A stretch of DNA of 64,000 bases from Deltaproteobacteria bacterium. Its GTDB lineage: Bacteria > Desulfobacterota > SM23-61. The notes under the pieces are model-generated. The model searched no databases. It was not told where the DNA came from and was given only the letters and a program-made list of their open reading frames with translations. The stretch spans positions 399-64,398 of the forward strand of contig VGSF01000018.1 in assembly GCA_016875165.1 (NCBI GenBank). Direction: 5' to 3'. Position 1 is the first letter of the stretch. Each line of letters opens with the position of its first letter. A program made the position numbers and the translations under genes. Shown here in pieces: positions 21,768-44,137 of the stretch.

Positions 21768-22062
21768 TAGTAAATTCAATAAAACCTCTTCTGATTTCCA
21801 GTTGAAATCCATCTGCCCTAAAGTGCATCTTCATTGGCAGGAAGATCGCCACACCTCAAGCCGGCAGTTCCCGGCTGGGTTCTTGATATCATGGGTAAAG
21901 CCGCAACCTCTTTTTTCTTTGGCGCCGGTTTATTGTTTTTCTGCATTTTCATATTGGAAATGTTCCATATAGGACAGAAGCGCTCCCCTCAGTTGAACAA
22001 TTGAAATCCTCTTATAGTTGATGAATCGGAGCGAGCCAAGATCAGAAGGAAGGAGAGCTACA

Positions 22063-23542
22063 ATGGCAGATGAGTTTATCGGGTGCGACGCAATCGGTTT
22101 GGGGGAATTGGTCCGCAAGAAGGAAATAAAGCCGGCCGAGTTGCTCGAGGTCACGATCCAGCGGGTCGAAAAGATGAATCCAAAATTGAATGCCGTGATT
22201 CACAAGATGTATGACCAAGCACGGGAAACGGCAGCAAATTGGAGTGTGGCAATCCAAAAGGGAAAGGCAGAGGGGGTAATCTTCTGCGGCGTTCCCTTTC
22301 TTATGAAGGACCTCTTTGCCGAATACAAAGGAGCTCCCTTTCATGAAGGTTCCCGGGCGGTCAAGGGATATGTTTCAAAAATAGATAGCGAGTTAGTGAA
22401 GCGCCAGAAAGCTGGCGGCTTGGTCATTGTGGGAAAGACCAATGCAGCTGAATTCGGGGCACTGCCCACAACCGAACCCATTCTTTATGGACCCACCCAT
22501 AATCCCTGGGACCCGAGTTTAACCCCCGGGGGGTCAAGCGGCGGGTCGGCGGCGTCTGTAGCCGCAGGGGTGGTGCCGATGGCTCACGGGAACGACGGCG
22601 GGGGGTCGATCCGCATCCCGGCATCTTGCTGCGGAATCTTCGGCTTAAAGCCCACCCGGGCAAGGAATCCCCTGGGCCCGCTTTTTGGGGATATTGGCAG
22701 CGGAATTCTCTATGAGCATGCGGTAACGCGCACGACGGGATTCGGCGGCTCTCCTGGACGTCACCTCCGGACCGGACGTAGGGGATCCCTATTATGCACC
22801 CCCCAAGGAACGCCCGTTTCTTGAAGAAGTGGTACGGAATCCGGGTCGATTGAAAATGGGCTTCTTGACCCGCATCCCTGATGGCTGGTCCGACAGAACC
22901 ACGATACATCAGGATTGTGAAAACGCAGTTGAAGACGCCGCCCGGCTTTGTGAGGGGTTGGGGCATACGGTTGAAGAAGTGGATCCGGGCCCCTTGAGCC
23001 ATCCCAATCTTCCCGCAACTTTCGGCTTCATTTTTTCCTGTTTCCTCGGCCATGTGGTGGCGTATTGGGAAAAGGAATTAGGGAAAAAAATCAAGCCGGA
23101 TGAACTGGAGCCCATAACCTGGGGAAGATATCAAGGGAGTTTAACCCGGCCTGGGGGAGATTACCTGTTTACGATTGAAGAGGTTCAGCGTTTCTCGCGG
23201 AAAATGGCACGCTGGTATCATGAAGGAGGCTATGATCTCCTCTTGACTCCGACGATGACCATTCCGCCAACCAAACTCGGCGCCTTCCAGTCAACGCCGG
23301 ACGACCCGATGAAGTGGCTTGGGGTTGCTCTTGGCTTTTTGGCTTTCACCCGCGTTCAAAACATGACCGGTCAACCGGCCATGTCCGTTCCCCTATTCTG
23401 GAATCAAAACAACATACCGATCGGGGTCCAGTTCGCCGGTCGTTTCGGGGACGAGGGGACCCTCTTCAGGTTGGCAGCCCAGCTGGAACAAGCGCGGCCG
23501 TGGAAAGATCGATGTCCATCCATTCACTGCCGGAACATGTAG
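22063..23542 (+). pseudogene. Amidase-signature enzyme split by a single frameshift
   Basis: [14 protein letters not shown] signature. The frame changes near 22725-22735: ..HAVTR in frame 1, [23 protein letters not shown].. in frame 2. Could be an assembly indel. Confidence 0.7.
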
Positions 23543-28704: not shown

Positions 28705-29545
28705 GTTTCAATCCTTGTTTTTATGGAACCCGCACTTCAACTTTGACAAAATCAATGATCGAAGAAGCCTTGAAAATGTTTCAATCCTTGTTTTTATGGA
28801 ACCCGCACTTCAACAGTTACTCATTCAGGAATTACAACTCCTTATATATTGTTTCAATCCTTGTTTTTATGGAACCCGCACTTCAACCGGAATTCGTGCC
28901 GCTGTCAGGATTCTCCTGACAGAGTTTCAATCCTTGTTTTTATGGAACCCGCACTTCAACAGTGCCATTCCAATTATCCAAACCACTGACATGGGGTTTC
29001 AATCCTTGTTTTTATGGAACCCGCACTTCAACAGTATGTGGACAGAAGTTAATCTTCCATTTAGAGAATGTTTCAATCCTTGTTTTTATGGAACCCGCAC
29101 TTCAACCTGTTCCTAGCGATTCTGCTGGCATCGTTTCTGAGTTGTTTCAATCCTTGTTTTTATGGAACCCGCACTTCAACCATTTCATTTTACGGCATCC
29201 GCTTCGCGGGCAGTTAGTTTCAATCCTTGTTTTTATGGAACCCGCACTTCAACCTATAATTTATCCCCGTTATCTGGCCACTAAAGAATGTTTCAATCCT
29301 TGTTTTTATGGAACCCGCACTTCAACCATAACGTTTAGAGAGATAATTAAAAGGGAGTCGAAGTTTCAATCCTTGTTTTTATGGAACCCGCACTTCAACT
29401 ATATTAATACATTACATACATTACGTACATTACTTGTTTCAATCCTTGTTTTTATGGAACCCGCACTTCAACGTAAAATGTATAGATACATTATACATTT
29501 TTCCTACGGTTTCAATCCTTGTTTTTATGGAACCCGCACTTCAAC
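28705..29545 (-). CRISPR. CRISPR array, 12 repeats and 11 spacers
   Basis: Twelve identical 37-nt repeats GTTTCAATCCTTGTTTTTATGGAACCCGCACTTCAAC start at 28705, 28778, 28851, 28924, 28996, 29070, 29144, 29217, 29290, 29363, 29436 and 29509. Spacers are 35-37 nt. The reverse complement ends in ATTGAAAC, so transcription is inferred on the minus strand, co-directional with the cas genes. Confidence 0.97.
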
Positions 29546-29714: not shown

Positions 29715-31621
<1,907 letters not shown>

Positions 31622-31704
31622 AGGACCAACCTCATTATCGATCCGGTTGTTTGATAAAATCATTTACGGAGGATTTAAACCTTTTCAAAATATCGTCAAG
31701 GCCG

Positions 31705-31995
31705 TTAACGATGGGCTGCTTTTTCATAGACAAGCTTTCCTTCCTTCATTACAAGGCTCTTGAATTTCGTCATCTTTCCGGAGAGGTCGATGATGTCAAC
31801 ATCCTTAGACATCTCCCGGAGGAGTTCTCCATAAAACATAAAGAGCTTTCCAGGTGGTATGTCCGCCACGGCGAAATCATAATCCCTAATTTCGGGGGGC
31901 TCCTTGTATAGGGCAGATCCGATCAAGTACATCTTCCCGATGCCATATTTTTTGGCAATAGCAATGGCCTTCTCAAGCTCTTCCTTCGGAATCAT
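31705..31995 (-). CDS. Minimal nucleotidyltransferase-fold protein
   Basis: LIGSALYKEPPEIRDYDFAV and VDIIDL resemble the GS..DxD..D NTase pattern. It overlaps the upstream NTase gene by 4 nt. Confidence 0.5.
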   Translation of the reverse strand: MIPKEELEKAIAIAKKYGIGKMYLIGSALYKEPPEIRDYDFAVADIPPGKLFMFYGELLREMSKDVDIIDLSGKMTKFKSLVMKEGKLVYEKAAHR

Positions 31996-32309
31996 ATTTT
32001 CACCCCTTCCTCTTCGATATTTTTTACGATGGGGGATACTCGTAAAGGGGAATCTACTATTTCATAACGTGAAAATACGAGAGGAGAGATAAAAACAGAA
32101 TACTCTAATCCGACCTCCCAGGCTATGTGATATATATTATCTTCCAATCCCTTATCGATATGCTCTGCTTCAATAAACACATCCATGTCAGAATACTCCT
32201 CAGCCTCACCCCTCGCCCTTGACCCGAATATCCTGAAATCTACCAACTGGACAACTTTGGCCAATCTCTCTTTCAGCTCCTTGGCTATTTTATAGTCTTT
32301 TTGGGTCAT
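31992..32309 (-). CDS. MNT-type minimal nucleotidyltransferase
   Basis: IFGSRARGEAEEYSDMDVFI motif. Confidence 0.7.
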   Translation of the reverse strand: MTQKDYKIAKELKERLAKVVQLVDFRIFGSRARGEAEEYSDMDVFIEAEHIDKGLEDNIYHIAWEVGLEYSVFISPLVFSRYEIVDSPLRVSPIVKNIEEEGVKI

Positions 32310-32394
32310 ACAAACTCGCTTTCTCGCGCTTGGAAGTCAGAAAAACTGTATGACAGCTCTTTCTTTCTCCCCAGATTTTTCTTTCCCTTTTTTC

Positions 32395-32522
32395 CTGGTC
32401 ACTGATCACTGCCCACTGATCACTGATCACTGATTACTGTTCACTTTCCTTACCGTTCCAAACCCCCTCGAAACCGACTTCCCAATCCCCCAATAATCCG
32501 GAATTTCAAAATTGACCGGAAA
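32395..32522 (-). repeat. Third copy of the cas6 3' end (last 27 codons plus stop) followed by tandem GTGAWCA heptamers
   Basis: The minus-strand reading of 32431-32522 gives VNFEIPDYWGIGKSVSRGFGTVRKVNSNQ-stop, matching the cas6 C-terminus. 32395-32445 reads GTGAACA GTAATCA GTGATCA GTGATCA GTGGGCA GTGATCA GTGACCA. Confidence 0.75.
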
Positions 32523-32882
32523 TCATCGCAGCCCTCCTCTTATAAATTCTAAAAATGCCCTAAATCCTTCAAGGGGTTCGAATGGAAACGGGGAAACCTC
32601 CACCTGGTTTTGAGAGCCCCTATGAAAATGATGCGGAAAAGTGGCTAAGGACTGCCATTGCTTGTCGGGGAAATTGTCATACCGGAAAAAAGTGCCGAGT
32701 TCATCCATGGTTTCCCAGTGAAACCCAAACCGATCAGAAAATTTTTGCGACAAGAAAGCGTCTAAAAAACTGCCGTTGATAAAAACAACCCTCAACTTAT
32801 AGTCAATTTCATAGGTATTCTTAACGATATCAGAGAATTCTATTTCCGCGATTCTTTTCAAGTCTTCGATGGTGGGCATCAA
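32523..32882 (-). CDS. TumE-family (DUF6516) toxin-like protein
   Basis: FGFHWETMDELGTFFRYDNFPDKQWQSLATFPHHFH matches the ..YHxQ..FRYDNxPHxP..TFPHHKH.. pattern of DUF6516. Confidence 0.65.
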   Translation of the reverse strand: MMPTIEDLKRIAEIEFSDIVKNTYEIDYKLRVVFINGSFLDAFLSQKFSDRFGFHWETMDELGTFFRYDNFPDKQWQSLATFPHHFHRGSQNQVEVSPFPFEPLEGFRAFLEFIRGGLR

Positions 32883-33157
32883 ACTGCCTCTGAAAGGAAT
32901 TTTTTAATCTTTTCCCTTTCCGCCTCAAGGTTATCGAAAACAAAATAGTCCTCATACCCTTTTTCTTCTGTGATAAACCCTTCTTTTACTCTCGAATCAA
33001 ATTCAAAGACATCCTTAACCCCATATTTTTTCGTCAAAATATAAATATCGGCTTCAATCTTTGCGAGCCTCTTCTCGAGATAAGTCCTGAGACTTTCCTT
33101 TATCAGCTCATCCGGCTTCATATGAAGTTCTTTCGCGACTAAATCTATAGTGGCCAT
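32879..33157 (-). CDS. 92-aa partner of the TumE-like gene
   Basis: RBS AAGGAGGG and a 4-nt overlap with the downstream gene. No family recognised. Confidence 0.45.
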   Translation of the reverse strand: MATIDLVAKELHMKPDELIKESLRTYLEKRLAKIEADIYILTKKYGVKDVFEFDSRVKEGFITEEKGYEDYFVFDNLEAEREKIKKFLSEAV

Positions 33158-33199
33158 CTTACCCTCCTTTGATCACCTTTTTCTTTTCCAACAAATTCA

Positions 33200-33372
33200 A
33201 TCTTTCCCCGTTCAACTTTCAATTCTTTGAACCGTCCCAAACCCCCTCGACAACGATCCTGAATCAAGTTCAGGACAAGCCCCCCAATTTGCCAATAATC
33301 TGGAATTTCAAAATTGACCGAAAAATGGCCGGGGAATCCAAGCATTGGGGTGCCTTTTAGGATATAGATCAA
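33200..33372 (-). repeat. Second copy of the cas6 3' end (about the last 56 codons), disrupted
   Basis: It reads ..YILKGTPMLGFPGHFSVNFEIPDYW.. like cas6 ..YYLKEVKTSLKGTPMLGFLGTFSVNFEIPDYW.. An insert of about 29 nt contains the palindrome CCTGAACTTGATTCAGG, and SRGFGTV then follows out of frame. Confidence 0.75.
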
Positions 33373-33596
33373 TCATGCTTCTTTTGACCATATTCTTCCT
33401 GATTTTCGTGTACGGCTCCAACCGAGATGGAAGTGGGTTCGACCAATCGGCTTTTCAGTCTGTCCCAAAGCGGATCCCTTTCGATAAGCTCTCGGGTCTT
33501 TTTGCGCTTCTCAACCCATGAGAGTCCCTGATCTTCTTCGTCAATTTCCACCCGCCGTCTGCGCATCCAGGCAACAGCATCAAAGGTTTTCTTCAT
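33369..33596 (-). CDS. 75-aa partner of the PIN-like gene
   Basis: MKKTFDAVAWMRRRRVEIDEEDQGLSWVEKRKKTRELIERDPLW.. It overlaps the PIN-like gene end. Confidence 0.45.
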   Translation of the reverse strand: MKKTFDAVAWMRRRRVEIDEEDQGLSWVEKRKKTRELIERDPLWDRLKSRLVEPTSISVGAVHENQEEYGQKKHD

Positions 33597-34050
33597 GGGA
33601 CAACACCTCCCTCGGAGTACGAATTTCAATCAATCCGTAGCCTTGCTCTAAATTAACGGCATTGAACAGCCGTATTTTGTCTAAATTGACGACATGCTTA
33701 AAATTCCAACTGACTAACACGTCCACGTGAGCAACCGTCGCCAAAGCTACATGAAAAGCATCCGACCGACTACCAGGGCCAACGATCCCATGGGCCAGAT
33801 ATGCTTCTGCCAAAGCATCGGCTTCCGGTGTATCTGCAAGTATGATCTGATGCGCCACAGGAATATCAAGAAGGTGTGCACGCACGTTTTCAGGAGCTCC
33901 GCTTAATTCTCGAAGAGTATGTTCCGACAGAACCTGCATAAAAACGCCCTTGATGAAAAGGCGCCACAGTGAGAGACTGGGTTTAGCAAATTCGCTGTCC
34001 TCGCAACCGCCAATAGCCGAGGCATCAACATAAATATAAAGCCTCTTCAT
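33580..34050 (-). CDS. PIN-like domain protein (VapC-type toxin candidate)
   Basis: MKRLYIYVDASAIGG.. and ..DAFHVALATVAHVDVLVSWNFKHV.. fit the acidic-residue spacing of PIN-like toxins. Confidence 0.55.
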   Translation of the reverse strand: MKRLYIYVDASAIGGCEDSEFAKPSLSLWRLFIKGVFMQVLSEHTLRELSGAPENVRAHLLDIPVAHQIILADTPEADALAEAYLAHGIVGPGSRSDAFHVALATVAHVDVLVSWNFKHVVNLDKIRLFNAVNLEQGYGLIEIRTPREVLSHEENL

Positions 34051-34114
34051 CTGTATCTCTCCCCACCTAACTTCGTCCCCGTCTCCCATTTCGTCATTTT
34101 TTACTGATCACTCC

Positions 34115-34798
34115 TCACTGTTCACTCTTCACTTTTTTTATCGTCCCAAATCCCCTCGACACCGACTTCCCAATCCCCCAATAATCCGGAATTTCAAAGT
34201 TGACGGAAAAGGTGCCCAAAAACCCAAGCATGGGAGTGCCTTTGAGGGAAGTTTTAACTTCCTTAAGATAATAGATATTCGCCTCGATTGGAGCCGGCAC
34301 CGTATACCCCAGACTCTTCGACATCGAAATAATATTGCCAATCATTATCTTCTCGAGGAGTTGCTTCTTCTTCCCCCAAGTGCCCAACATCTGGTATTTT
34401 TCGTAATTCTTTTCATTTAAGGCAAGCCAGGGGGTGAGGAAGGAGTAGGATTGAACGGTCTCAGTGGTTTTTATTGGGGTATGATGAAATTCTAATTCTG
34501 TAGTAAGGATAGTATAATTTCCACACCCTAAAAAAAGTGTTTTTGCCGCCAGATCAAGATTGGCAAGGAGTTTTGCTCCGTCCTTAAATCCAACAAGCAG
34601 ACAATTACCATTAATTATCTTATACTGAACCAGCGGATGGTGGTAATCAATTTTCCCATTTTCACGATGTTGATGAAGTAATCGTTCTTCGGGATAGAGA
34701 TTGGATACTGCTCCGCGCAAGTCTTTGGTTTTAACTTTCCGATCAAGGGGTCGGTCAAATTTAAGTTTGAGAATACAGAGACTTATTTTACTATTCAT
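34115..34798 (-). CDS. cas6: Cas6 pre-crRNA endoribonuclease
   Basis: N-terminal ..LRGAVSNLYPEERLLHQH..YHHPLVQYK.. and C-terminal glycine-rich loop SRGFGTIKKV. The start overlaps the cas3 end by 4 nt. Confidence 0.8.
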   Translation of the reverse strand: MNSKISLCILKLKFDRPLDRKVKTKDLRGAVSNLYPEERLLHQHRENGKIDYHHPLVQYKIINGNCLLVGFKDGAKLLANLDLAAKTLFLGCGNYTILTTELEFHHTPIKTTETVQSYSFLTPWLALNEKNYEKYQMLGTWGKKKQLLEKIMIGNIISMSKSLGYTVPAPIEANIYYLKEVKTSLKGTPMLGFLGTFSVNFEIPDYWGIGKSVSRGFGTIKKVKSEQ

Positions 34799-37101
34799 AA
34801 TATTAATACTCCACCTGTAGAATCATCATCTATAACCAAACCTTTATCTGTAGAATAAAATCTATCGTGTAATATCCACTGCCCCAAATATTCAGTTGCA
34901 ATATCCTGTGGATCAAATCCGCGTTTTGCATAAACACTAACTGAAATTTTTGCTATCCTGCCTGCCATCGCTCGCCATGCCTCTCTCCGCTTCCAACGGT
35001 CGTCTATTTTGTTTGCTTTTGACATTTCATCTTTTAATTCAGGATCCTGTTTTATAACCAGAAAGGTGTATTTCTCCCGTTCTTCTCCCCGAAGTAGTTC
35101 CTTAACAGACTTATCTTCCTCCCATCTGGCAAATTTTTTAAGATGCTCAATCCCTGTATTCTTCTTTGCGGTCAACATCTCAAAGTAACGATCTGCAAAA
35201 GGTAGGATATCCCTTTCTTCGATCTCTGTAATCTCCTCTGTTAGTTGTTGAGTAATCTGCAAATGAACATCATCGTACACCATATCGGAATACCGTTTCC
35301 CCTTTTCATTGTTCAAGTCAACGACCTCAACAGTTGCCGGATGAGATAGTCTGCCGTTACGATTACAACGGCCAGCAATTTGAATTAAGCTGTCAAATGG
35401 AGCAAAGTCTCGAATTACAAAATTCATATCAATGTCAACCCCTGCCTCTATGCACTGAGTTGACACAACAATACAAGGATTATCTTCCTTAATTGTCTTT
35501 ATAATATCTAACCTATCCTTTGGAGTTACATCTGCACTGAGGAAAAATAATGGAATGTTTGAAAATTCCCGAGGCCAATCATCAGCCAGTTTATCACGCA
35601 CAAGCCGGGCGCTCTTGCGGGTATTCAATGTAATAAGTACCCGCTTGTTATTTTTTAACCATTCATCTCGGCGATTAAAAACCTCATTGCAGAAATCATT
35701 TATCTTAAGTTTTTCCTGAAGCCTAAACTGCAACTTATATCGGTTGAATTCCTCAAAATAAGCAGAGTAATCTTCTACGAGTGGTTTTGCATCCGAAATG
35801 ATGGCAGGGAGTGTAGCCGACATCAACAAAACACTGCTGTTACCAATCTTTACCAGACATCTCAATAGTTCTTCCAAAGGCTTCCATAACTTACAAGGAA
35901 GAGACTGAACCTCATCCATTACAATTAAAGAGTCGCACAAATTATGAAATCGCATCTGGTACCTTGTCTTTGTATCCATCAGAGCCATTAAGAACTGATC
36001 ATAAGTGGTAATCGTCAATTCCGTTCGCCATGTATCAACAAAAAAGTGTTCAACATCTTCCTCTAATCCCTGCTTATATTTTCTGTCGGACAGGGAGTGA
36101 CTTGTTAAAAACCATGAACCATCGGCCTCTTGACCACCAGTTGTCAGGAGAGATTCATATTCCCTTGTTGTCTGGTCAATTACAGAAAGAAAGGGCAACA
36201 CAATTATTGCCTTTGGGCATAGTCCTTTCTTGCTCATCTTCTCACGTAATTTTAAAAGCCATGTGGCAGAAAGCATCGTTTTGCCACTACCTGTTGGTGC
36301 TGTCAGGCTGAATATACCAGTCCTTTCAATCTTCTCAATCTGGCTTTTTAAAGTAATTCTTAGTGATTGTCGGATCTTATTAACCGGTGTATCTTCTGGT
36401 GAACCAATCTTTTGGTCAACCCATTGAGAGTTCCAGTATTTTATCTCTCTCTGGAGATAAGTTTGGGGGTTTTTTACAGCAAGAAGTGCCTTATCAGCCT
36501 CAAGCAAAAGAGAAAAGAGCAACTGGGTTTTTAGCCTGAAGATAATGGCATCCTCAATTGATAATCCCTCAAATTTAGGCACGACAGAATTATCAAGATA
36601 TTTTAAAGCCTCTGCCCAGGGACGACCATCAAGATTTAGCCTTGAAATATCAAGACCAGAATGCTGATTTAAGCCATCAGCTTGCAGGGTTGCAATCTGT
36701 CGCTTTAAGGTTTTGGGAAGTGCACCAATGCCTATTTCCCTCAACCTTTCTGCTAACGGTAATTCTTTATGGTGGCCGAAAACAATAGCAGATACACTCA
36801 TTGTCTCTAATGCCTCCCACTTTTCCTCTCTGGAAATTAAAAGTGTAAGAAGCAGAGACATTGGTGTATGAGCTTTATCCATTGGGTCGCCGGTGTAAGC
36901 AGGTGGATTCTCAATATATTCCTGAAATGCCTTTGTCCCTTTCCCTATATCATGCAAAGAAACTACCTTCTGAATAAGTGCCTTAATTTCCGGTGACACT
37001 ACACTCTTTGAATGCCAACCGCAGAGGCTGTCTATTGCGGATTTAACTTGAGCAATATGTTCAGAAAGTTGGAGATCTGGATGAGATTTCAGTTTGGTCA
37101 T
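34795..37101 (-). CDS. cas3: Cas3 HD nuclease-helicase fusion
   Basis: HD region VVSLHDIGKGTKAFQ, helicase motif I APTGSGKT and motif II VMDEVQS. Confidence 0.92.
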   Translation of the reverse strand: MTKLKSHPDLQLSEHIAQVKSAIDSLCGWHSKSVVSPEIKALIQKVVSLHDIGKGTKAFQEYIENPPAYTGDPMDKAHTPMSLLLTLLISREEKWEALETMSVSAIVFGHHKELPLAERLREIGIGALPKTLKRQIATLQADGLNQHSGLDISRLNLDGRPWAEALKYLDNSVVPKFEGLSIEDAIIFRLKTQLLFSLLLEADKALLAVKNPQTYLQREIKYWNSQWVDQKIGSPEDTPVNKIRQSLRITLKSQIEKIERTGIFSLTAPTGSGKTMLSATWLLKLREKMSKKGLCPKAIIVLPFLSVIDQTTREYESLLTTGGQEADGSWFLTSHSLSDRKYKQGLEEDVEHFFVDTWRTELTITTYDQFLMALMDTKTRYQMRFHNLCDSLIVMDEVQSLPCKLWKPLEELLRCLVKIGNSSVLLMSATLPAIISDAKPLVEDYSAYFEEFNRYKLQFRLQEKLKINDFCNEVFNRRDEWLKNNKRVLITLNTRKSARLVRDKLADDWPREFSNIPLFFLSADVTPKDRLDIIKTIKEDNPCIVVSTQCIEAGVDIDMNFVIRDFAPFDSLIQIAGRCNRNGRLSHPATVEVVDLNNEKGKRYSDMVYDDVHLQITQQLTEEITEIEERDILPFADRYFEMLTAKKNTGIEHLKKFARWEEDKSVKELLRGEEREKYTFLVIKQDPELKDEMSKANKIDDRWKRREAWRAMAGRIAKISVSVYAKRGFDPQDIATEYLGQWILHDRFYSTDKGLVIDDDSTGGVLIL

Positions 37102-37823
37102 AAATACATTACAACCTTATCGTCAACTTTATATGCTTGGTCTGTCTCTGCAGGAACTGCCCTTCCATCGCGCTCTACGAAATAGGCAGAATGGGAAAAA
37201 ACCCTATCAGCCGTAACGGTTCGGGGCATTTGGAGAGAATGGATTACTAATTCCTTCTCAAATATCTTTTCCATTTCAAGAACACCCACCCCCTGCTGAA
37301 ATACAGACTGAACATCGTAAGTGCCTTTTGGAAGCAACATACATTCATTTGTGCCAAGATATTCAATATCCGCTATCATTTCAGAAAGCCCAAGAGATGG
37401 ACTAAAATGCCACTGCCTCTTGTTTAGTCTATTTTTCAGTTCGGTATGGTGTGGCTCGGGGATTGAAACCCAGACGGTATAACTTGGTTCAAATAGCCAT
37501 TCTTGAAGAATCAATGTTGGTTTTTCAGGTACTGTATTCCGGTCTAACTTTTGAGTTCTTCTTATAAAGTGAGGTAATAAGGCGGGTGGATCCTTGCGCA
37601 ACTTTGCCCTATGCCAATGTGTCTTTGGCAATCTTCCATAAATTGCAACATTAGCTGGTTCCAGAGCAACCTGTGGCTCATCTTTTGGCAAACCAAGAAC
37701 AGCACCTAAAATACCCAAGATAACAGTTCTTGGTGGAATGGGGTAACTCAAAGCGCTTGCTGATGCCTCTGCCCTTAAGAAATGCGCAAAGCGACCACTG
37801 AGTCGGAAAATTATCAATTCCAT
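37098..37823 (-). CDS. cas5: Cas5
   Basis: MELIIFRLSGRFAHFLRAEASASALSYPIPPRTVILGILGAVLG is a canonical Cas5 N-terminus. Confidence 0.85.
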   Translation of the reverse strand: MELIIFRLSGRFAHFLRAEASASALSYPIPPRTVILGILGAVLGLPKDEPQVALEPANVAIYGRLPKTHWHRAKLRKDPPALLPHFIRRTQKLDRNTVPEKPTLILQEWLFEPSYTVWVSIPEPHHTELKNRLNKRQWHFSPSLGLSEMIADIEYLGTNECMLLPKGTYDVQSVFQQGVGVLEMEKIFEKELVIHSLQMPRTVTADRVFSHSAYFVERDGRAVPAETDQAYKVDDKVVMYL

Positions 37824-37826
37824 TGG

Positions 37827-38843
37827 TTACTCCTTTGATGTCTTTGCAGACTCATTATCTTTCTTGGAAGTGGATAACATTTCAACATCAAAAGACTCCC
37901 ATCCCGATGGCAAATCTTCTGTCAACTGAATATCCATTGATTTAGCATAACGCACCTTTTTTATCCTCACATTCTGAGCCATCAACCGGTTAATTAATAT
38001 CGTCAGGTCTAACTTGTAATCATCAGGTGATGCCCATGCCTTTTCGTCTTTGCCATTACTTGCCAGCATTTTCACGTAGTCATGCAATCGTCCAAATTGA
38101 AACTCTTCTTCTGCATTGTATTTGATGTCAATCAGCAGATGTGGAATTTGTCCTACTTTGGTTCTGGTGTTTCCACAAACCCTCACCCCGTGCCACATTG
38201 CTTTCAGCAGATATTCATAATCCTCGTCTGACATTTTCGAAATCTTTGCAGAATGTTCGTTTGCCACGCCAGAAAAGCCAATCAAGGCATAACGAAGGCC
38301 AAAGTAAGCAGTAAATGTACCTGCCTTTTCTTCCCCACTTTTGGAAAAGATAGTTGTTCCATGAATATCTACTTCCTCTGCTTTGTGAAGGACTTCGCCC
38401 ATATTGAGTTGAACCGCACCAGTCATTGTTTTGGGGACAAGATCCCATTTTGCCTTTCTACCGCTTCCTTTTCCTTCCTCTTCTTTTTTAAATGCAAAGG
38501 AGCTGCCAAAAAGCTTGGCATCAATAAAGGCATCCAAGAGTATCTTGACTAACTCCTCGCCGTTTGCCTCCTTCTGGTTGTGCTTTTGGAGATAATCCAC
38601 AACCCTGCCGGTCAAATTTGTTGTCCTGCCTTCAATGTTATCAACTAAGATGTCTTTCCCCTGACTTTTCATAAAATCCCGAGCAAAGCGTTTTAACCGA
38701 ACATCAGTTACATAATGTGTTCCATCCGGCAAAACCCGGGGTCTGTTTTCATCTGGATCACCATTTGGATTACCCATCTTGATGTCATAGAGAAACAGAA
38801 ATTCATGCCTGCTTGATAAAGTATCTTTAGTTTCCTTGTCCAT
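37827..38843 (-). CDS. cas7: Cas7 (Csh2/Csd2-type)
   Basis: FLFLYDIKMGNPNGDPDENRPR motif. Confidence 0.88.
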   Translation of the reverse strand: MDKETKDTLSSRHEFLFLYDIKMGNPNGDPDENRPRVLPDGTHYVTDVRLKRFARDFMKSQGKDILVDNIEGRTTNLTGRVVDYLQKHNQKEANGEELVKILLDAFIDAKLFGSSFAFKKEEEGKGSGRKAKWDLVPKTMTGAVQLNMGEVLHKAEEVDIHGTTIFSKSGEEKAGTFTAYFGLRYALIGFSGVANEHSAKISKMSDEDYEYLLKAMWHGVRVCGNTRTKVGQIPHLLIDIKYNAEEEFQFGRLHDYVKMLASNGKDEKAWASPDDYKLDLTILINRLMAQNVRIKKVRYAKSMDIQLTEDLPSGWESFDVEMLSTSKKDNESAKTSKE

Positions 38844-38844
38844 T

Positions 38845-40824
38845 TTATTTTTCCTCCTTTTTCGGTAAGATTGTTGTGGTCATAGACTGACCCAGCAACA
38901 GATAATAGTTAGTTGGTATCTCACCCAACTCAATATTATCTCCCAGCCTCCAGCCAAGATTCCCAATCTCAGCAATAAGTTCCCTCACATCTTCGCTCTT
39001 TTCGGTTTCATAAGATAGGAGCTTTTCCCTGGTTTTAATATACAATTCAGGAAGGTCTCTTCCCTTCAATGTACACCGTTTAAGCCAGGTAAGGGCATTT
39101 GCACCTACATTAACACCCCTTGCCCCTTGGACTTGAAGCACCTTTCCATAAAGCACACCAAGCAAGAAGGCATACGCCTTTTGTGGAGAATCAATCCCAC
39201 TTTCAGCGCCAAAATAGAGATTCAATCTCTCCATCTGCGGTTCGTAATATTTGTCTTCCATACTCATCACCTCCAATTTCTTAAAATAATATAACCACCA
39301 GCACAGATTTCTTATCCAACCAGCAGCAGTTAAAAAGGTCTCTCCAGTTTTCTTTCGGCCTTCGTAAAGAAGACTATTGTATCCTTTATCTTTTTGAATA
39401 GCATTCAGCCAATAGACTCGGGCAATAGTCATAATTTCTTCCCAGAATCTTACCGTTGGAATCTCTGTTTTGTGATATACAGAGGCAGCTATTGCTTTCT
39501 TTAATTGATGAAGTTTCATACTTGCGTCTGGACGATAAAATAGTGTTTTTAATGCCCTAAGTGATAAATCAGGGTGGAAGTTGATTCTTTTATCAGAAAA
39601 AAACATTATTTCTGGAAAAAGAGGATGTTTCCAATCCCGTGATTCCTCATTAACCTTTGATAGCTCAGTCAATCTACCTGGTGGCACATTCGTTATCATA
39701 CCTGTTACATCTTCTATATTTTGCCCAACTGTAGCCCAGAGGAAAGTAAGATTTAATATCCCTTTTTTATCCTTAAGGATGTCCAAAATCGTTAGCTCAG
39801 CCTCTTCCACATCAGAAGGTACAGTCTTCACAATGTCCTTTACTGCTTTCCAAATACTCTGTCTCGCATGGTAGTCTACTGTAGTAAATGGGATTACAAC
39901 AGCATTCTCTCCTGCAATAGGGGTGATAAAGGAATTCTGGTTTTTAGAGTCCTTTTTCAGGAAGTGGAATTTATATATATACAGCAGATCAGCACAGGCA
40001 TTACAGAGGGCATATCCTTTCCATGCTTGAGTTGTATCAATACCAGGAAAGGCTCCTGCTCTATCAGCATTGCTTATGTTAATGCCAGCACCTTTCAGAG
40101 CATTCGGGAAAACAGTAACACCTGTTGCGCCACATAGAGGACAGGTTTGATTATCTACAGCAGGTGTATTGCCAGTAACATATCTTGTTCCGGCAAGTTT
40201 TTCAGTCATCAGATAGGTGAGATATTCTGGTCGTTGACCAGGAAGTTTCCCGCTGCTATCCTTAATAGCAAGAAATACAGTCTGTTTCTGTTCGCCAATT
40301 TTATCAACCGCAGCGGCGAGAAGATTTTCGTAACCAACATCTTTCCAACAGACAATAGAGTTATCTATAAGTTTGAGTTGTGGACGATTCAGCAACCCTA
40401 CAATTTCATTAAAATAAGGTGACCACGGTTTATTATCACCAGCAATTTCCTCAAATGATTCAATAGTTGTTTTAAGGATTTTAGTGGAAGGTCCTGGACC
40501 TCCTGCCTTACTATAGCTGCGTTTTATTACTGGCCCAATCTGTGCCCCTTGAGAACCAGATGGCCTCATAAACGGTAGCCACCTTGCCTTTTCTTCAGTC
40601 ATATCTTCAGGAGACAGCCTGACAATGTCTTGGTCTACATCCTTCTCAAGAATATAGATTTTTTCAACATTTTCTCCACTCTCAACCAAAAATGGAAACA
40701 GCCGTTCAGGGTGATCGGTGCGTAACTTGTGATACCATTCTTCCAGATTTTGAGGCGGATTGTCTTTGTCTCCCAGTTTGTCAAAAAGAGAATCCCATGC
40801 CATTGTTCTCATTGCGTTAATCAT
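38845..40824 (-). CDS. cas8b: Cas8b large subunit (TM1802/Csh1-like)
   Basis: 659 aa, located at the head of cas7-cas5-cas3, with a central zinc-ribbon-like CPLCG ... CNAC. Confidence 0.75.
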   Translation of the reverse strand: MINAMRTMAWDSLFDKLGDKDNPPQNLEEWYHKLRTDHPERLFPFLVESGENVEKIYILEKDVDQDIVRLSPEDMTEEKARWLPFMRPSGSQGAQIGPVIKRSYSKAGGPGPSTKILKTTIESFEEIAGDNKPWSPYFNEIVGLLNRPQLKLIDNSIVCWKDVGYENLLAAAVDKIGEQKQTVFLAIKDSSGKLPGQRPEYLTYLMTEKLAGTRYVTGNTPAVDNQTCPLCGATGVTVFPNALKGAGINISNADRAGAFPGIDTTQAWKGYALCNACADLLYIYKFHFLKKDSKNQNSFITPIAGENAVVIPFTTVDYHARQSIWKAVKDIVKTVPSDVEEAELTILDILKDKKGILNLTFLWATVGQNIEDVTGMITNVPPGRLTELSKVNEESRDWKHPLFPEIMFFSDKRINFHPDLSLRALKTLFYRPDASMKLHQLKKAIAASVYHKTEIPTVRFWEEIMTIARVYWLNAIQKDKGYNSLLYEGRKKTGETFLTAAGWIRNLCWWLYYFKKLEVMSMEDKYYEPQMERLNLYFGAESGIDSPQKAYAFLLGVLYGKVLQVQGARGVNVGANALTWLKRCTLKGRDLPELYIKTREKLLSYETEKSEDVRELIAEIGNLGWRLGDNIELGEIPTNYYLLLGQSMTTTILPKKEEK

Positions 40825-40888
40825 TGAATACCACTCCTTTTTAAAAATTAGACAGCTTTAATCTCTATCTGCCATTTGCCGATTTATC

Positions 40889-41041
40889 TTATTGCAGAAA
40901 GCATAACTTACTTCCCATATGCCCATGAAATTCTGGACTATTTCTATGTAAATTCCCGAAAAACCCACGGATGGCGCGGCCATCGCTAAGTGCCAATGGA
41001 TTTTCAGTGGTTATCCAGATCTCGGTCTTTTCGAGGTTCAT
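40889..41041 (-). pseudogene. 50-codon ORF resembling the N-terminus of a Cas6/RAMP protein, truncated
   Basis: In MNLEKTEIWITTENPLALSDGRAIRGFFGNLHRNSPEFHGHMGSKLCFLQ-stop, the RGFF..PE.H segment resembles Thermus-type Cas6 N-termini as I recall them. It lies 66 nt upstream of cas8b. Confidence 0.35.
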
Positions 41042-41165
41042 AGATACCAGTGTCAGTGTCAGCGGTTGGTGAAAGGCGCAACCTAAGGCTGCGGCTGCCT
41101 TCCCCTCACCCTGCCCTCTCCCGCCAGGGGAAACATTAATTTCTCCCGCCAGGGGAGAGGGAATT
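40981..41165 (-). repeat. Direct repeat D, copy 1
   Basis: Hand alignment to 42597-42770 gives about 18 mismatches over roughly 140 nt. It includes REP-like GGGAGAGGG palindromes and the first 21 codons of the RAMP-like ORF. Confidence 0.75.
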
Positions 41166-41255
41166 TCGATCCCGCGATGCGCGGGACTCAGGGCACGCCC
41201 AACCCCCTCCCGCCAGGAGAGAGGGAAAGGACGCTGTATTGCCCGGATAGAAGAA

Positions 41256-41942
41256 TCAAGGGTTAATGGGGTGATATACCCTGGTCCTCGACATAAGTTT
41301 CTTTATGCTATCTTTCGGGAACCACAAATCTATTTCCTTGAAGGTTACTTTGAGCTTGCCTAATTCCTCTCTAAAATTATGGATATTCTTTTGGGGTATA
41401 GCTACGACACCAGCTCCTACACGCATCCCCTGCAATGTTTGAACGATTCCCAATTTTTCGCTCTCATACGATTTATCCTTTATAAGTTTTCTTGTTTTTT
41501 GACCATATAATATCCTTTTAACTTTCATCTTATTCTTAGGATTCAAATTCGCAAGGCCAAACGTTACAAGCACATAATGTTCTAATTCCAAACCGTTAAC
41601 TGTTATTGAAGGAGACCTCGAAAATAAAAGGATCCCTTCCTTCATCACCACTTCCATAAAATGATCATCTAAGCCTGCAAAGTTTTTGTTTGTGAAAATA
41701 AGTTGAATACTTTTCCCGTATTCTTTCTCCAGGCTAAAAGCGAGTTCCGAGATTCTCGTTCTTGCTTCAACTTCTTCAAAATCCCTGTTATAGGAATCCA
41801 AAACTACCAACAAATCTATATCAGATCGTCTATCGGCATCGCCTTTGGCTACCGACCCAAATAAGAATATGTGAGCGACTTCCTCTACCGAGGCGTGCTT
41901 TGCAAATTTAAAAACCAAGTCTTTAAATTCATCTTGTATCAT
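41256..41942 (-). CDS. Nucleotidyltransferase with a C-terminal ferredoxin-like (Cas2/PaaX-middle-like?) domain
   Basis: LFGSVAKGDADRRSDIDLLVV NTase motif. The C-terminal half (HYVLVTFGLANLNPKNKMKVKRILYG ... LQGMRVGAGVVAIP) has a Cas2-like beta-alpha-beta pattern. An ATGA overlap links it to the upstream gene. Confidence 0.6.
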   Translation of the reverse strand: MIQDEFKDLVFKFAKHASVEEVAHIFLFGSVAKGDADRRSDIDLLVVLDSYNRDFEEVEARTRISELAFSLEKEYGKSIQLIFTNKNFAGLDDHFMEVVMKEGILLFSRSPSITVNGLELEHYVLVTFGLANLNPKNKMKVKRILYGQKTRKLIKDKSYESEKLGIVQTLQGMRVGAGVVAIPQKNIHNFREELGKLKVTFKEIDLWFPKDSIKKLMSRTRVYHPINP

Positions 41943-42298
41943 TCTGGCACTCCGCAAATTGCTTCAACAAATCGAAAGAGCTCTTGCGTCCTTCTAAGTT
42001 TCTTACCGTCAATTGCTCCTCCATAAATCTGTCCGGGCCTTATCTGATTTTCAATCTCTTGAAATGACCTCCAAACCTTTTCAGTATTCTCTCCAAAAAT
42101 CTCTTGATTATTTTCCAGGATCAATCTGACCTTCTGAAGTTTCTCAAGGTGAATTCCCAACTCAGCTGCTTTCGATTCTATTAAATGGAAAAGAGCATTA
42201 AAGTAAGCTTCTATCCTTGTCGGAATTGAATTTATTTCATTTTCGGCATCGTGCTTGAACATGAGATACTTCTCCTTATGAGAGTTAGAATCCGACAC
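41939..42298 (-). CDS. HEPN-like helical partner protein
   Basis: AYFNALFHLIESKAAELGIH resembles the ..YYAxFHAxxALL..GI..H.. helix of KNTase_C-type HEPN domains. The Rx4-6H motif is not obvious. Confidence 0.4.
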   Translation of the reverse strand: MSDSNSHKEKYLMFKHDAENEINSIPTRIEAYFNALFHLIESKAAELGIHLEKLQKVRLILENNQEIFGENTEKVWRSFQEIENQIRPGQIYGGAIDGKKLRRTQELFRFVEAICGVPE

Positions 42299-42412
42299 AT
42301 TCTTCTCTTTTCGTCATACTATATCACGAAAGTGCGGTTTTTGTTGTATTTCGTTATATTATATTGCGAATTATCCGAAATTAAATTGCCCAGACCACCA
42401 TGAAAACCGATT

Positions 42413-42520
42413 GTGTGAAAAATGGGACCTTCGGGCAGAAGGGACCTTAGATTCTTTATTCTTAGATAAAAAGGTCCCCCATTCCCCAGCATAAAAAAAA
42501 TCTCCAGGATTACGGATCTT
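42413..42520 (-). repeat. Direct repeat H, copy 1
   Basis: GTGTGAAAAATGGGACCTTCGGGCAGAAGG...CATTCCCCAGCATAAAAAAAATCTCCAGGATTACGGATCTT aligns to 43852-43953. Confidence 0.7.
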
Positions 42521-42596
42521 CATAAATTCCTTTGGGCCCCCGCTTTATAAAAGGGACATCCTAAGCTGAAAACTAATTTTCATTCTTGGAGTTTCC

Positions 42597-42770
42597 GTCG
42601 CTAAGTTCCAATGGATTTTCAGTGGTTATCCAGATCTCTGTCTTTTCGATCTTCATAGATATCAATGTAAGTGTCAGCGGTTAAGGAATGGCGCGACCCA
42701 GGGCTGTGGCTGCCTCCCCCTCACCCTACCCTCTTTCACGAGGGGAGAGGGAGCTGGAGGGAGGAGCATA
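42597..42770 (-). repeat. Direct repeat D, copy 2
   Basis: It carries MKIEKTEIWITTENPLELSDG, then diverges (..NSKNEN-stop). Confidence 0.75.
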
Positions 42771-42799
42771 TTCAAGAGGGGAGAGCGGTTGTTATCTGA

Positions 42800-43495
42800 T
42801 TATCCTGATTTTCCGATACTCTTTTTTATCAGTTTTCTCGCCAGCCCTTTAAAGAAAACAGCCATCTCCTGGTCTTGACATTCTTTCTTCATATTCAGCA
42901 GTTCTACTCCCTTTTCCGGACATTCCAAGAACCTTCCTTGAAGGATATACCTTAACCCTTTGATGCCGAATTTTTGTTCCGTGGCCTCGACCATTTCATC
43001 GATGGACGGTTTTGGACAATCTCTCAAGATAAAATAAATGTCCACATAGTCTTTCACATCCTTCCTGTCTGTCAATGCCATGAATTTATTAGCCAAGATG
43101 TCGAGGATGCTATCAACCTGTATTCCCTCAACCCTCTTGAATGGTTTAATCGTTTTAAATGGATATTTTGTGAATTCCACTTTTAAGTATCCAGCGTCTC
43201 GGTACCGGATTATGAATATTTTTCTATCGAACTTCCTTTCGAGATTTAAATCTTGAACCTCCGGTAGGGATTTCAAAAAGGCCAAAATGAGTTCTGTTTC
43301 AACCTCCTCCTCGGTGAAGAAGTCGAGGTCTTCCGATAGACGATGTCGGAGGAAAAAGGCTGACAAAGCGGTCCCAGCCGTAATATAAAACTTCGAAGCC
43401 CCGGGCCATTCTGCAAAATGCCTTAATAAGATCTTCTGATGTTTTGTAAGAATAGGATTATTTTTTATTTTTTCCACTCTTCTCCTCCCAGGCAT
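42800..43495 (-). CDS. Nucleotidyltransferase AbiEii/AbiGii-family toxin (DUF1814)
   Basis: FYITAGTALSAFFLRHRLSEDLDFFTEEEV and ..VKDYVDIYFIL.. Confidence 0.7.
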   Translation of the reverse strand: MPGRRRVEKIKNNPILTKHQKILLRHFAEWPGASKFYITAGTALSAFFLRHRLSEDLDFFTEEEVETELILAFLKSLPEVQDLNLERKFDRKIFIIRYRDAGYLKVEFTKYPFKTIKPFKRVEGIQVDSILDILANKFMALTDRKDVKDYVDIYFILRDCPKPSIDEMVEATEQKFGIKGLRYILQGRFLECPEKGVELLNMKKECQDQEMAVFFKGLARKLIKKSIGKSG

Positions 43496-43730
43496 TCTTG
43501 TATTCTTCTACGAGCAGTCTTGTGGTCTCATCCATCCTAAGCTTTCCCATCATTTTGTAAAGCCTAAACACGGTCTCTCTATCCCGGCCATAAACCGGGA
43601 AAAAATCGGCTATCCTTTGAAGCCTCCACAGTGGATCATCGGGAGGCTTTTTGTAATCCCATAGCAGCTCTTTGGGAATCTCAATTGCTTGGGCGTTCGT
43701 TCGTTTAATAACAATTCTCTTTTGACCCAT
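43458..43730 (-). CDS. Antitoxin-like partner of the AbiEii-type gene
   Basis: 90-aa ORF overlapping the toxin start. ..LWDYKKPPDDPLW.. resembles the partner at 7831-8172 (..FFWDYDFKKL..). Confidence 0.45.
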   Translation of the reverse strand: MGQKRIVIKRTNAQAIEIPKELLWDYKKPPDDPLWRLQRIADFFPVYGRDRETVFRLYKMMGKLRMDETTRLLVEEYKNAWEEKSGKNKK

Positions 43731-43851
43731 TTATAAATCTCCTCTTTTCACTTGTATTTAGGCACTTGTTGGGTTAAAAATACTCCCCCTTGAATCTTCA
43801 AAACAGATTTTCAGGTATTGCTGAAAGTCCATATACAAGTTTATGGGTCTG

Positions 43852-43953
43852 AGTGAAAAATGGAACGTTCGTGCAGAACGTGCATCACATTCCTTATTCT
43901 TAAAAAAGTTGCCTCATTCCCCAGCATCCCAAAAATCTCCGGGATTCAGGATT
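43852..43953 (-). repeat. Direct repeat H, copy 2
   Basis: AGTGAAAAATGGAACGTTCGTGCAGAACGT...CATTCCCCAGCATCCCAAAAATCTCCGGGATTCAGGATTT. Confidence 0.7.
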
Positions 43954-44137
43954 TAAAGGCAAAAGCGATGTTACGAGTTTCCGGTTCCAAGTTTCAGGTT
44001 ATTATTCCGGCAACCAAATACAACAAAAATAATCATTCCCGTGAAGGCGGGTATCCAAGAAAATACTGGATGCCGGATCAAGTCCGGCAAGACGGAGTTA
44101 ATCTTTTATATTATCTGGTTAATAAAAATTCTTTATT

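Follow-up and report, generated by a model that had tools for sequence, protein, structure and literature searches.

Cassettes stacked between copies of the cas6 3' end at the effector-adaptation seam of a type I-B CRISPR-Cas operon

How does a CRISPR-Cas operon come to hold, in its middle, a row of small genes separated from one another by fragments of one of its own cas genes? This question is raised by a 64,000-nt stretch of DNA from a Deltaproteobacteria bacterium (contig VGSF01000018.1), hereafter the window, whose coordinates are used throughout. It contains a type I-B CRISPR-Cas locus in which effector genes, adaptation genes, and an adjacent array are all present. A 2.4-kb slot with six genes separates cas6 from cas1, the first adaptation gene and the right-hand conserved border of the slot, and all the genes of the operon and of the slot lie on the minus strand. 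The slot thus lies at a seam, where the effector module (cas8b-cas7-cas5-cas3-cas6) meets the adaptation module (cas1-cas2-cas4). The answer that we consider probable, although far from certain, is that this seam undergoes homology-driven gain, loss, and exchange of blocks composed of a cas6 3' end, a purine-rich tail, and a cassette, and that the cas6 remnants found between cassettes are eroding scars of this process.

Copies of the cas6 end and cassettes in the slot

The window holds three copies of the cas6 end, i.e. that of the intact resident cas6 and those of two downstream remnants, named A and B. The repeated unit is a conserved 23-amino acid (aa) core, FSVNFEIPDYWGIGKSVSRGFGT (69 nt), within the last ~40 codons of cas6. 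In the resident copy, a heptamer tail extends over the stop codon, and tails homologous to it are found in four other loci (L084, L089, L001, and L077). Formal alignment and blastn show that both remnants are significantly similar to the resident end. Region 32415-32522, which includes remnant B, displays 87% identity to 34103-34210 over 108 nt (E = 2e-32), and remnant B still encodes FPVNFEIPDYWGIGKSVSRGFGTVRKVNSNQ in frame up to the stop. Remnant A begins 44 nt upstream of the core and aligns in two pieces, with 78% identity between 33283-33361 and 34169-34247 (E = 2e-12), and 76% identity between 33215-33256 and 34124-34165 (E = 1e-3). It is split by an insert, named v1, which contains the palindrome CCTGAACTTGATTCAGG at 33258-33274 and folds as an 8-bp hairpin, and the reading frame is lost after this insert. 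These findings bear out a first-pass annotation made from the letters of the window alone, which had described two additional cas6 3' copies, the upper one out of frame after a palindrome-bearing insert, and the lower one in frame to the cas6 stop and accompanied by about seven heptamers (7.3 copies according to TRF). Its insert length of ~29 nt is corrected to 23 nt by the alignment. Both copies had been said to be flush with the preceding cassette. Indeed, when a nucleotide profile of the cas6 end is used, remnant A starts 5 nt past the stop codon of the 75-aa gene of cassette 1, and remnant B starts directly at the stop codon of tumE. TRF detected no further period-7 array of at least three copies in cas6 or the slot, and elsewhere in the window only runs of two to three copies spanning 15-23 nt.

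Two side observations concern these copies. Remnant B shares the reading frame of tumE, from which it is separated by a single TGA codon (32523-32525). Read-through of this stop would add a Cas6 C-terminal peptide to TumE, which may be a coincidence as the chance of a shared frame is one in three. In addition, a sigma-70-like match is present on the plus strand, i.e. antisense, in all three cores (34156-34185, 33272-33299, and 32468-32497). It reads TCGACA-18-AATAAT in the resident copy, has a different -35 hexamer in both remnants, and is directed back into the upstream gene. This match is probably without meaning because it rests on synonymous codon choices that differ at other loci.

The six genes of the slot form three units that are unrelated to one another. 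Cassette 1 consists of a VapC/PIN-like gene, with a weak match to the Pfam PIN domain (E = 0.077), and of a downstream 75-aa partner without any family match. The same module, with the same overlap between its genes, is also found outside any CRISPR locus, in a cluster of toxin-antitoxin (TA) and defence genes in L163; no cas6 remnants were found beside PIN modules outside CRISPR loci. Cassette 2 is, by its gene content, a predicted TA pair of the TumE-TumA type, an experimentally validated family in which toxicity and neutralisation were shown for other members (PMC10584680). Its 92-aa gene (p92), which occupies the antitoxin position, always adjoins tumE in related loci. The third unit consists of two genes, MNT1 and MNT2, that are both nucleotidyltransferases of the antitoxin type. 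In five related loci (L116, L091, L022, L038, and L002), the MNT2 homologue is followed by an open reading frame (ORF) of a HEPN cluster, on one member of which (L091) the Pfam HEPN domain was identified. Similarly, the MNT1 homologue is followed by an ORF of a HepT-like cluster in L002 and L038. No HEPN ORF was found in the window between MNT2 and MNT1 or before cas1, which means that this unit lacks the combination of nucleotidyltransferase and HEPN toxin that defines a HEPN-MNT system. Of the three TA-like two-gene cassettes originally described, the third is no TA pair but two MNT genes without their HEPN partners.

Two Logan contigs match the stack at 100% identity, and a JGI contig of another sample matches it over 11.3 kb with 98% identity. 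It has thus been assembled independently, which rules out the assembly artefact that the first-pass annotation had named as a possible refutation.

The cas6-cas1 gap in related loci

Scans of genome and metagenome collections with Cas6 yielded 159 loci, part of which were retrieved by the exact peptide word NFEIPDYW. They originate from Thermodesulfobacteriota, Nitrospirota, Brocadiales (anammox Planctomycetes), Omnitrophota, Aminicenantes, and others. For the survey of the gap, we used the 93 unique loci in which cas6 is followed by an adaptation gene on one contig. The length of the gap is extremely variable. In 14 loci it is ~0, as cas6 abuts or overlaps cas1, and it measures 30-250 nt in 8 loci and 250-600 nt in 15 loci. 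Remnants are absent from all 37 of these gaps shorter than 600 nt. They are present in 5 of the 32 gaps of 600-1200 nt, in 8 of 13 (1200-2000 nt), in 6 of 9 (2000-3200 nt), and in one of the two longer than 3200 nt, i.e. mostly in multi-cassette gaps. Gap content comprises 96 protein clusters, mostly of TA type, 29 of which occur in at least two loci. Apart from MNT-type nucleotidyltransferases and TumE, which are common, Pfam identifies HEPN and HepT-like proteins, AbiEii with DUF6922, Rv0078B-type antitoxin with a DUF2204-like nucleotidyltransferase, DUF2283 with a PBECR2-like nuclease, YhcG/DUF1016, and a 23S-rRNA-IVP four-helix protein. Loci with zero, one, or different cassettes thus exist, with gaps from ~0 to >3 kb.

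The cas6-end nucleotide profile identifies 53 remnants in 39 of 160 loci. More than half (30 of 52) start between -16 and +17 nt from the stop codon of the preceding ORF. The 5' ends of remnants at such flush junctions cluster from 44 nt upstream of the 69-nt core to 13 nt inside it, and their overall spread is wider. A particularly clear example is L111, where p92-TumE, a DUF2283 pair, and HEPN-MNT follow cas6 in this order, each with a remnant behind it, before cas1 is reached. Some stacks have no remnant between their cassettes (L002 and L012). Many remnants contain stop codons or frameshifts, and, at codon positions without variation in functional genes, remnants are ~5% decayed, equally in both halves of the core. 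Judged by this decay, remnants are non-coding for protein.

The cas5-cas3-cas6 region of the window is 88-90.5% identical at the nucleotide level to that of nine relatives (L080-L089, L001, and L002), with homology ending at the cas6 end. Where cas1-cas2-cas4 are on the contig, their identity to the window is only 66-69% in L084, L089, L081, L001, and L002, but 77% in L083 and 80% in L088. On these identities, the effector and adaptation modules differ in history. In closer pairs of loci, homology is lost in the cas6 3' end: the 98% identity of L080 and L084 extends to 13 nt beyond the core, after which they are unrelated, and L022 and L027 are 94% identical to the core end. Divergence profiles place the switch at approximately -35 (L091/L093), -100 (L080/L084), and -300 nt (L022/L027) from the core. 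Such variation of the crossover point would be expected of homologous recombination rather than of a fixed site.

In two pairs, one locus appears as the before or after state of the other. L091 corresponds to L092 with the addition of a tail and an MNT-HEPN cassette between two cores, and from the middle of the core through the tail its remnant matches the resident L092 end without any difference. With R for the cas6-3' repeat and X for a cassette, this is a polymorphism of R-X-R versus R with breakpoints in the repeat, which is seen for L091 versus L092/L093 and also for the window versus L077. The latter locus is syntenic with the window on the side of adk, the C26 peptidase gene, and mgtE, and the window has in addition the PIN gene, the 75-aa gene, and one cas6-3' copy. 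L077 is also without window positions 34277-43855 (two TA-type genes and the stretch from cas8b into the 5' portion of cas6), without the heptamers, and without MNT2. Transfer of blocks between otherwise unrelated loci is also seen: L027 and L135 have cas6 genes that are only 66% identical, yet their block of tail, p92, and remnant is 91% identical. More generally, the family of tail or heptamers follows the downstream cassette block, and not the body of the upstream cas6. The view, already put forward in the first-pass annotation, that the cas6/cas1 junction is a recombination hotspot that collects cassettes is supported by the hypervariable gap in 93 loci, by breakpoints between close relatives that fall within the 3' end of cas6, and by pairs of the R-X-R versus R type. 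The variation of crossovers and of remnant 5' ends is consistent with the homology-based route proposed there, whether Campbell-type or by double crossover, circular and linear substrates being indistinguishable by sequence.

Three observations on related loci touch the slot and its repeats. An extra ORF, mostly of ~100-140 aa, is present between cas1 and cas2 in 12 loci (L004, L007, L008, L012, L017, L027, L029, L041, L049, L051, L058, and L070). To judge from its contents, the cas1-cas2 gap is a second, smaller insertion slot within the adaptation module, and no cas1-3' duplications were found where genes sit between cas1 and cas2. The sequence of the heptamers varies by locus (GTGATCA, GAGTTRR, GAAATAG, CGGTGTC, and CAGAAGA), and heptamer tracts of varied sequence also occur in cas1-cas2, cas2-cas4, and pre-cas1 gaps (L031, L051, L047, L056, L017, L033, and L070). 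Such tracts resemble the short tandem heptamer repeats of cyanobacterial intergenic regions. In L031, a 154-nt cas1-cas2 gap contains a 7.6-copy AGACAAA tract (51 nt). An extreme cas6 tail tract is found in L051 (10597-10860), where a very long array of GAGTTGA/GGGTGTT units extends over >200 nt directly after cas6 and is open in three frames, with repetitive ORFs of the WGVGVLGC type. Lastly, in L007 (10695-10736) the second half of the core alone lies directly after the cas6 tail with no cassette between, which may be the scar of a lost cassette.

Origin of the remnants and competing explanations

Where do the remnants come from? In L006, remnant and resident differ by 12 changes at third codon positions, as many as the mean of random pairs (12), and by none at positions 1-2. 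Within the 69-nt core, remnant B differs from the resident copy at five third positions and at one other. It is closer to a remnant of L080 (97%) and to the cas6 end of L084 (93%) than to its own resident copy (about 87-88%). These patterns show that remnants derive from once-functional, often foreign cas6 alleles. Moreover, remnants form lineages that are shared between loci. Two unrelated inserts of 23-24 nt, v1 and v2, are found at one identical point of the core, between GGGAAG and TCGGTG. The v1 insert is present in remnant A of the window, in three copies in L111, and in L116, whereas v2 is present in two copies each in L027 and L078, and in L135. Copies carrying v1 differ in their 5' truncation, tail, and neighbouring cassette, which indicates that remnants erode from their 5' side and undergo gene conversion with one another. 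One rival explanation is a simple segmental duplication of the cas6 end in situ followed by divergence. In its favour, the nearest relative of a remnant is its own resident copy in some loci (three differences in L022 and L029, seven in L007, and six for remnant B). This origin is ruled out by differences that are concentrated at synonymous sites, by v1 and v2 lineages common to unrelated loci (that of remnant A to L111 and L116), by the greater proximity of remnant B to L084 and L080, and by three cassettes that are mutually unrelated. Together with an artefact of assembly, which the independent contigs contradict, it is hardly credible.

In the explanation that we favour, i.e. homology-driven block exchange at the seam, the unit of exchange would be the last ~40 codons of a cas6 allele with a purine-rich heptamer tail and one small gene pair, mostly of TA type. 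Homologous recombination anchored in the extremely conserved cas6 3' end, presumably of the RecA type and with a circular or linear DNA substrate, would move such blocks between loci. An incoming block would bring a new cas6 end and push the old one downstream, generating R-X-R. Once repeats are present, blocks could travel between arrays by double crossover or by loop-out and re-integration. The remnants would be non-coding scars, which 5' deletions would shorten until flush with the upstream stop codon and which gene conversion would partly homogenise. The TA modules would act as addiction modules and persist between direct repeats because their loss is penalised, as expected from established TA biology.

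Several points weigh against this explanation. Homology cannot make the first junction between a cassette stop and a cas6 3' end for each type of cassette, for which an illegitimate join would be needed, and all of the ~12-15 independent junctions lie no more than ~60 nt from the core. Flush junctions could plausibly result from erosion, from unstable long repeats, or from selection acting on polar 3' flanks; at least one long remnant, which starts from cas6 codon 116 (L078), is already flush. Recombination between cores that are only 75-87% identical would be inefficient. Furthermore, remnant A shows more decay than remnant B even though it is beside the expected site of the most recent insertion, which does not fit a simple series of insertions. 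Remnant A, as a member of the v1 lineage, probably arrived as an old remnant within a multi-cassette block, and the history of the slot in the window thus reads as a mosaic. Retrieval of part of the loci by a peptide word also biases upward the conservation of that stretch and the frequency of remnants. Finally, the cas6 end carries a strand-specific signal that suggests a function for which plain scars have no need.

This signal is an enrichment in G at synonymous sites. In cassette-bearing loci (n = 61), G makes up 51% and C 16% of the four-fold degenerate sites in the core, versus 17% and 22%, respectively, in the rest of cas6. In cassette-free loci (n = 15), the corresponding values are 21% G and 19% C for the core and 14% G and 23% C for the rest of the gene. 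The bias increases along the core and peaks at codons 210-219, which correspond to the 30-nt GGGAAGTCGGTGTCGAGGGGGTTTGGGACG. Of these ten codons, an average of 6.0 end with G in cassette-bearing loci versus 2.7 in cassette-free loci (Mann-Whitney p = 1.5e-7). Cassette-free loci are interspersed in a tree of the N-terminal part of Cas6, and the difference has the same direction in 12 of 13 spaced contrasts (sign test p = 0.0017). The 70 nt that follow the core are similarly skewed, with 8.8% C and a median GC skew of +0.49 versus +0.08 in the gene body, which is positive in 66 of 70 loci. Three causes could be discarded: an overlapping gene, as alternative frames are open over only ~28 codons; a G-quadruplex alone, as the bias is strongest at TCG GTG TCG, where it adds no G-runs; and GC-biased gene conversion, as G is favoured and C depleted, which makes the bias strand-specific. 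It is possible that the bias reflects linkage to a circulating pool of cassette leaders, that it represents a GT-rich, recombination-prone sequence, or that it makes a C-poor leader that avoids Rho loading in an untranslated gap.

The last possibility leads to the idea that remnants are kept for a function, the G-rich, C-poor cas6 end and purine-rich tail serving as a 5' leader by excluding Rho or by providing a context for ribosome binding. This would be compatible with block exchange, the scars then being selected rather than merely tolerated. Apart from the G bias and C-poor tail, it would account for remnants that keep their 3' half and tail and lose their 5' side. Formerly invariant positions nonetheless decay equally in both core halves, no sense-strand promoter motif is found inside the remnants or the resident cas6 end, and folding z-scores (-0.5, -1.6, +0.25, +1.9, and -0.05) give no signal of RNA structure. 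Heptamer families of some other gaps are not C-poor (CAGACAA and TCCGTTG), and remnant-free stacks exist. We thus regard a leader function as rather unlikely. Serial replacement of the effector module, in which cassettes would be passengers, is a somewhat better candidate, albeit still an unlikely one. Replacement would be homologous on the left, with an illegitimate join inside the old cas6 on the right (homology-facilitated illegitimate recombination), and the truncated old cas6 would leave its 3' end before older cassettes and cas1. The unequal divergence of the two modules fits such a process, as do four loci with another I-B arrangement (L065, L066, L068, and L072). These have a full cas6, only 33-40% identical, at the operon start, and a window-type cas6 remnant (79-92% aa identity) after cas3, which is followed by cas1 where the contig reaches (L065 and L066). 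In L078, cas3 precedes window-type remnants, on a contig that begins inside cas3 and on which no cas1 was found. In L077, L071, and L057, only a cas6 3' piece is left after effector gene loss. Against replacement, L091 and L092 differ by one cassette and one repeat with effector genes common to both, the window and L077 differ by a single cassette plus one repeat, L027 and L135 have a cassette block in common but not cas6, and insertion-marked remnants are present at several positions of one array (L111, L027, and L078). Replacement of effector modules evidently takes place as well and probably contributes, but leaves the shuffling within arrays unaccounted for.

Dedicated site-specific capture, similar to that at integron attI and attC sites, would require an enzyme acting at the cas6 end or the heptamers, for example a host tyrosine recombinase or Cas1-Cas2-Cas4. 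Cassettes are indeed co-oriented, compact, and flush, the slot adjoins cas1, only cassette-bearing loci favour GGGAAGTCGGTGTCGAGGGGGTTTGGGACG at synonymous sites, and two unrelated inserts of 23-24 nt lie at exactly one point of it. On the other hand, remnant 5' ends and crossovers are spread over tens to hundreds of nucleotides, cassette ends show no attC-like inverted repeats, no similarity to the CRISPR repeat is seen, and several stacks are without a remnant between cassettes (L002 and L012). A Pfam scan of 30 proteins of the window, which did not extend to small ORFs elsewhere in it, identified no recombinase, integrase, or transposase. Nor does the proposal of the first-pass annotation that such a process recognises the GTGAWCA/TGATCA tract find support, because heptamers differ in sequence between loci, recur in other gaps, and come with unfixed boundaries. 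Site-specific capture is therefore very unlikely. A bolder version, to which we would give slightly more credit while still considering it quite unlikely, is that the cas6 end has been co-opted as the true recombination site of a capture system inside a CRISPR operon, with GGGAAGTCGGTGTCGAGGGGGTTTGGGACG recognised by a trans-acting enzyme, possibly Cas1-Cas2-Cas4. If so, the operon would actively gather addiction modules that protect it from loss.

Operon setting and relation to known systems

The features of the locus are listed in Table 1. For cas1, relatives align only from residue 15 on, and its true start is likely to be near 31621 as judged from this alignment. The operon is flanked by ordinary chromosomal genes, including those for adenylate kinase, a C26 peptidase, MgtE, Nramp, and LarA. 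Directly upstream of cas8b, further TA/defence-type genes form a second cluster (41256-44695), the first two genes of which are absent from L077, and TA-type genes consequently border the effector module on both sides.

Table 1. Features of the CRISPR-Cas locus, slot, and upstream cluster in the window
Feature	Position	Strand	Evidence or remark
CRISPR array, 12 repeats of 37 nt	28705-29545	-	TRF; Rfam CRISPR-DR7, 12 matches; repeat count
cas4	29715-30368	-	family assignment via near-identical locus L160
cas2	30340-30654	-	family assignment via near-identical locus L160
cas1	30644-31663	-	Pfam Cas_Cas1, E = 2e-77; TIGR00287
MNT1, MNT-type nucleotidyltransferase, antitoxin-type	31705-31995	-	Pfam Polbeta, E = 1.6e-9; NCBIfam MntA, E = 7e-8, below family cut-off
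MNT2, MNT-type nucleotidyltransferase, antitoxin-type	31992-32309	-	Pfam NTP_transf_2, E = 6e-9
7.3 tandem heptamers, CTGATCA (TGATCAG on coding strand)	32395-32445	-	TRF; overlaps remnant B end
Remnant B	32427-32522	-	cas6-end profile; core, tail, and original stop still in frame
Cassette 2 gene 2, TumE (DUF6516)	32523-32879	-	Pfam PF20126, E = 1e-12
Cassette 2 gene 1, 92-aa MJ0235-like, antitoxin (TumA) position	32879-33157	-	precomputed Pfam PF27273 on identical gene in L160
Remnant A, cas6-3' pseudogene fragment	33210-33363	-	cas6-end nucleotide profile; alignment; blastn
Cassette 1 gene 2, 75-aa partner	33369-33596	-	no Pfam match; overlaps PIN gene by 17 nt
Cassette 1 gene 1, VapC/PIN-like, 156 aa	33580-34050	-	100%-identical protein named VapC family toxin at NCBI; 3930 homologues
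Heptamer tail over cas6 stop, GTGAAGA GTGAACA GTGAGGA GTGATCA	34103-34133	-	TRF period 7 (34108-34133, 3.7 copies) and period 14 (34103-34133, 2.2 copies)
Intact cas6 (Cas6b)	34115-34798	-	Pfam Cas6b_N, E = 2e-20; Cas6b_C, E = 2e-44
cas3	34795-37101	-	Pfam Cas3_HD/DEAD/Helicase_C; NCBIfam cas3_core
cas5	37098-37823	-	Pfam Cas_Cas5d; NCBIfam Cas5b score just under cut-off
cas7	37827-38843	-	Pfam Cas_Cas7
cas8b (Cas8b/TM1802)	38845-40824	-	Pfam Cas_TM1802
Effector block cas8b-cas7-cas5-cas3, left side of slot	34795-40824	-	Pfam; NCBIfam; ~88-90% identical in relatives
Nucleotidyltransferase	41256-41957		upstream cluster
AbiEii toxin	42800-43495		upstream cluster
ORF6N-domain protein	44138-44695		upstream cluster

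Four observations concern other parts of the window. Self-targeting is not seen: the 11 spacers of the array have no match in the rest of the window, where exact matches reach at most 12 nt, as chance would give. Spacer 10 (29403-29433) is of low complexity, an unusual feature for a spacer, with ~3.6 copies of ATTACATAC. At 22018-23542, two adjacent ORFs on the same strand correspond to the N-terminal (positions 1-179) and C-terminal (247-444) parts of the Amidase family profile, suggestive of an amidase gene interrupted by a frameshift or by an error in sequencing. At 6682-6753, far from the CRISPR locus, a 37-nt unit is found in near-perfect tandem (94% matches, 1.9 copies).

The interest of the slot is severalfold. 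The seam between effector and adaptation modules can be placed to ~100 nt, and scars together with before/after pairs allow the process to be followed in the sequence itself. In Thermodesulfobacteriota, Nitrospirota, anammox Planctomycetes, Omnitrophota, and others, this seam is a store of addiction modules inside a cas operon, which bears on how costly CRISPR loci escape loss and on why TA genes cluster with cas genes. The synonymous signature and cassette-linked tails possibly reflect a sequence prone to recombination, a role against transcriptional polarity, or a genuine recognition site. In practice, the conserved cas6 end beside cas1 could be used as an anchor to mine new TA and defence cassettes from metagenomes.

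How does the slot compare with known systems? TA genes near or inside cas loci are known, and so is the exchange of cas modules. In the literature searched on cas6 remnants, heptanucleotide repeats with cas6, and TA genes in cas operons, we found neither stacks of cassettes delimited by fragments of cas6 nor the synonymous-site signature described. The first-pass annotation had matched the stack to no described system. One related case is CreTA, found with CreR, i.e. CRISPR-repeat-like RNA guards, in I-B cas operons, which needs a degenerate CRISPR repeat RNA (PMC9458426, PMC8501985). Like CreTA, the slot contains addiction-type modules in a type I-B cas locus that could safeguard this locus. 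Unlike CreTA, its cassettes are ordinary protein TA modules; a CreTA-type module is ruled out, as the best match to the CRISPR repeat within the slot is no better than that of shuffled repeats and Rfam matches the array only. In Escherichia coli, cas-E replacement swaps blocks of cas genes between strains, with insertion elements implicated (PMC3903273). The window is similar in that neighbouring modules have different histories, but its seam lies inside the operon, at the cas6 end, and has become a slot for several cassettes, recognisable by its cas6 fragments.

Recombination hotspots and defence islands accumulate variable accessory and defence genes between conserved flanks that act as homology arms. 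The slot likewise has variable defence-type genes between conserved flanks, but it is located within an operon, and its left arm is ~100 nt of one gene, which is duplicated between cassettes and has a cassette-linked nucleotide signature. Integrative elements that target the 3' ends of tRNA or protein-coding genes supply a replacement end, and displaced partial copies are found in their tandem arrays. The similarity here is the order of intact gene, insert, and displaced 3' copy, several partial copies arising by tandem accumulation; the slot differs by units of 0.7-1 kb, by the lack of an integrase, and by a duplicated length that is not fixed. The arrays of chromosomal integrons (superintegrons) consist of small co-oriented cassettes with a repeated element, show high turnover, and are rich in TA genes, which are thought to stabilise them. 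The slot shares the small, co-oriented, TA-rich cassettes, the repeated element that separates them, and the high turnover. It has neither an IntI integrase among the 30 scanned proteins nor attC hairpins. Instead, its repeat is a fragment of the neighbouring protein-coding gene, with variable boundaries, and its crossovers indicate homologous recombination.

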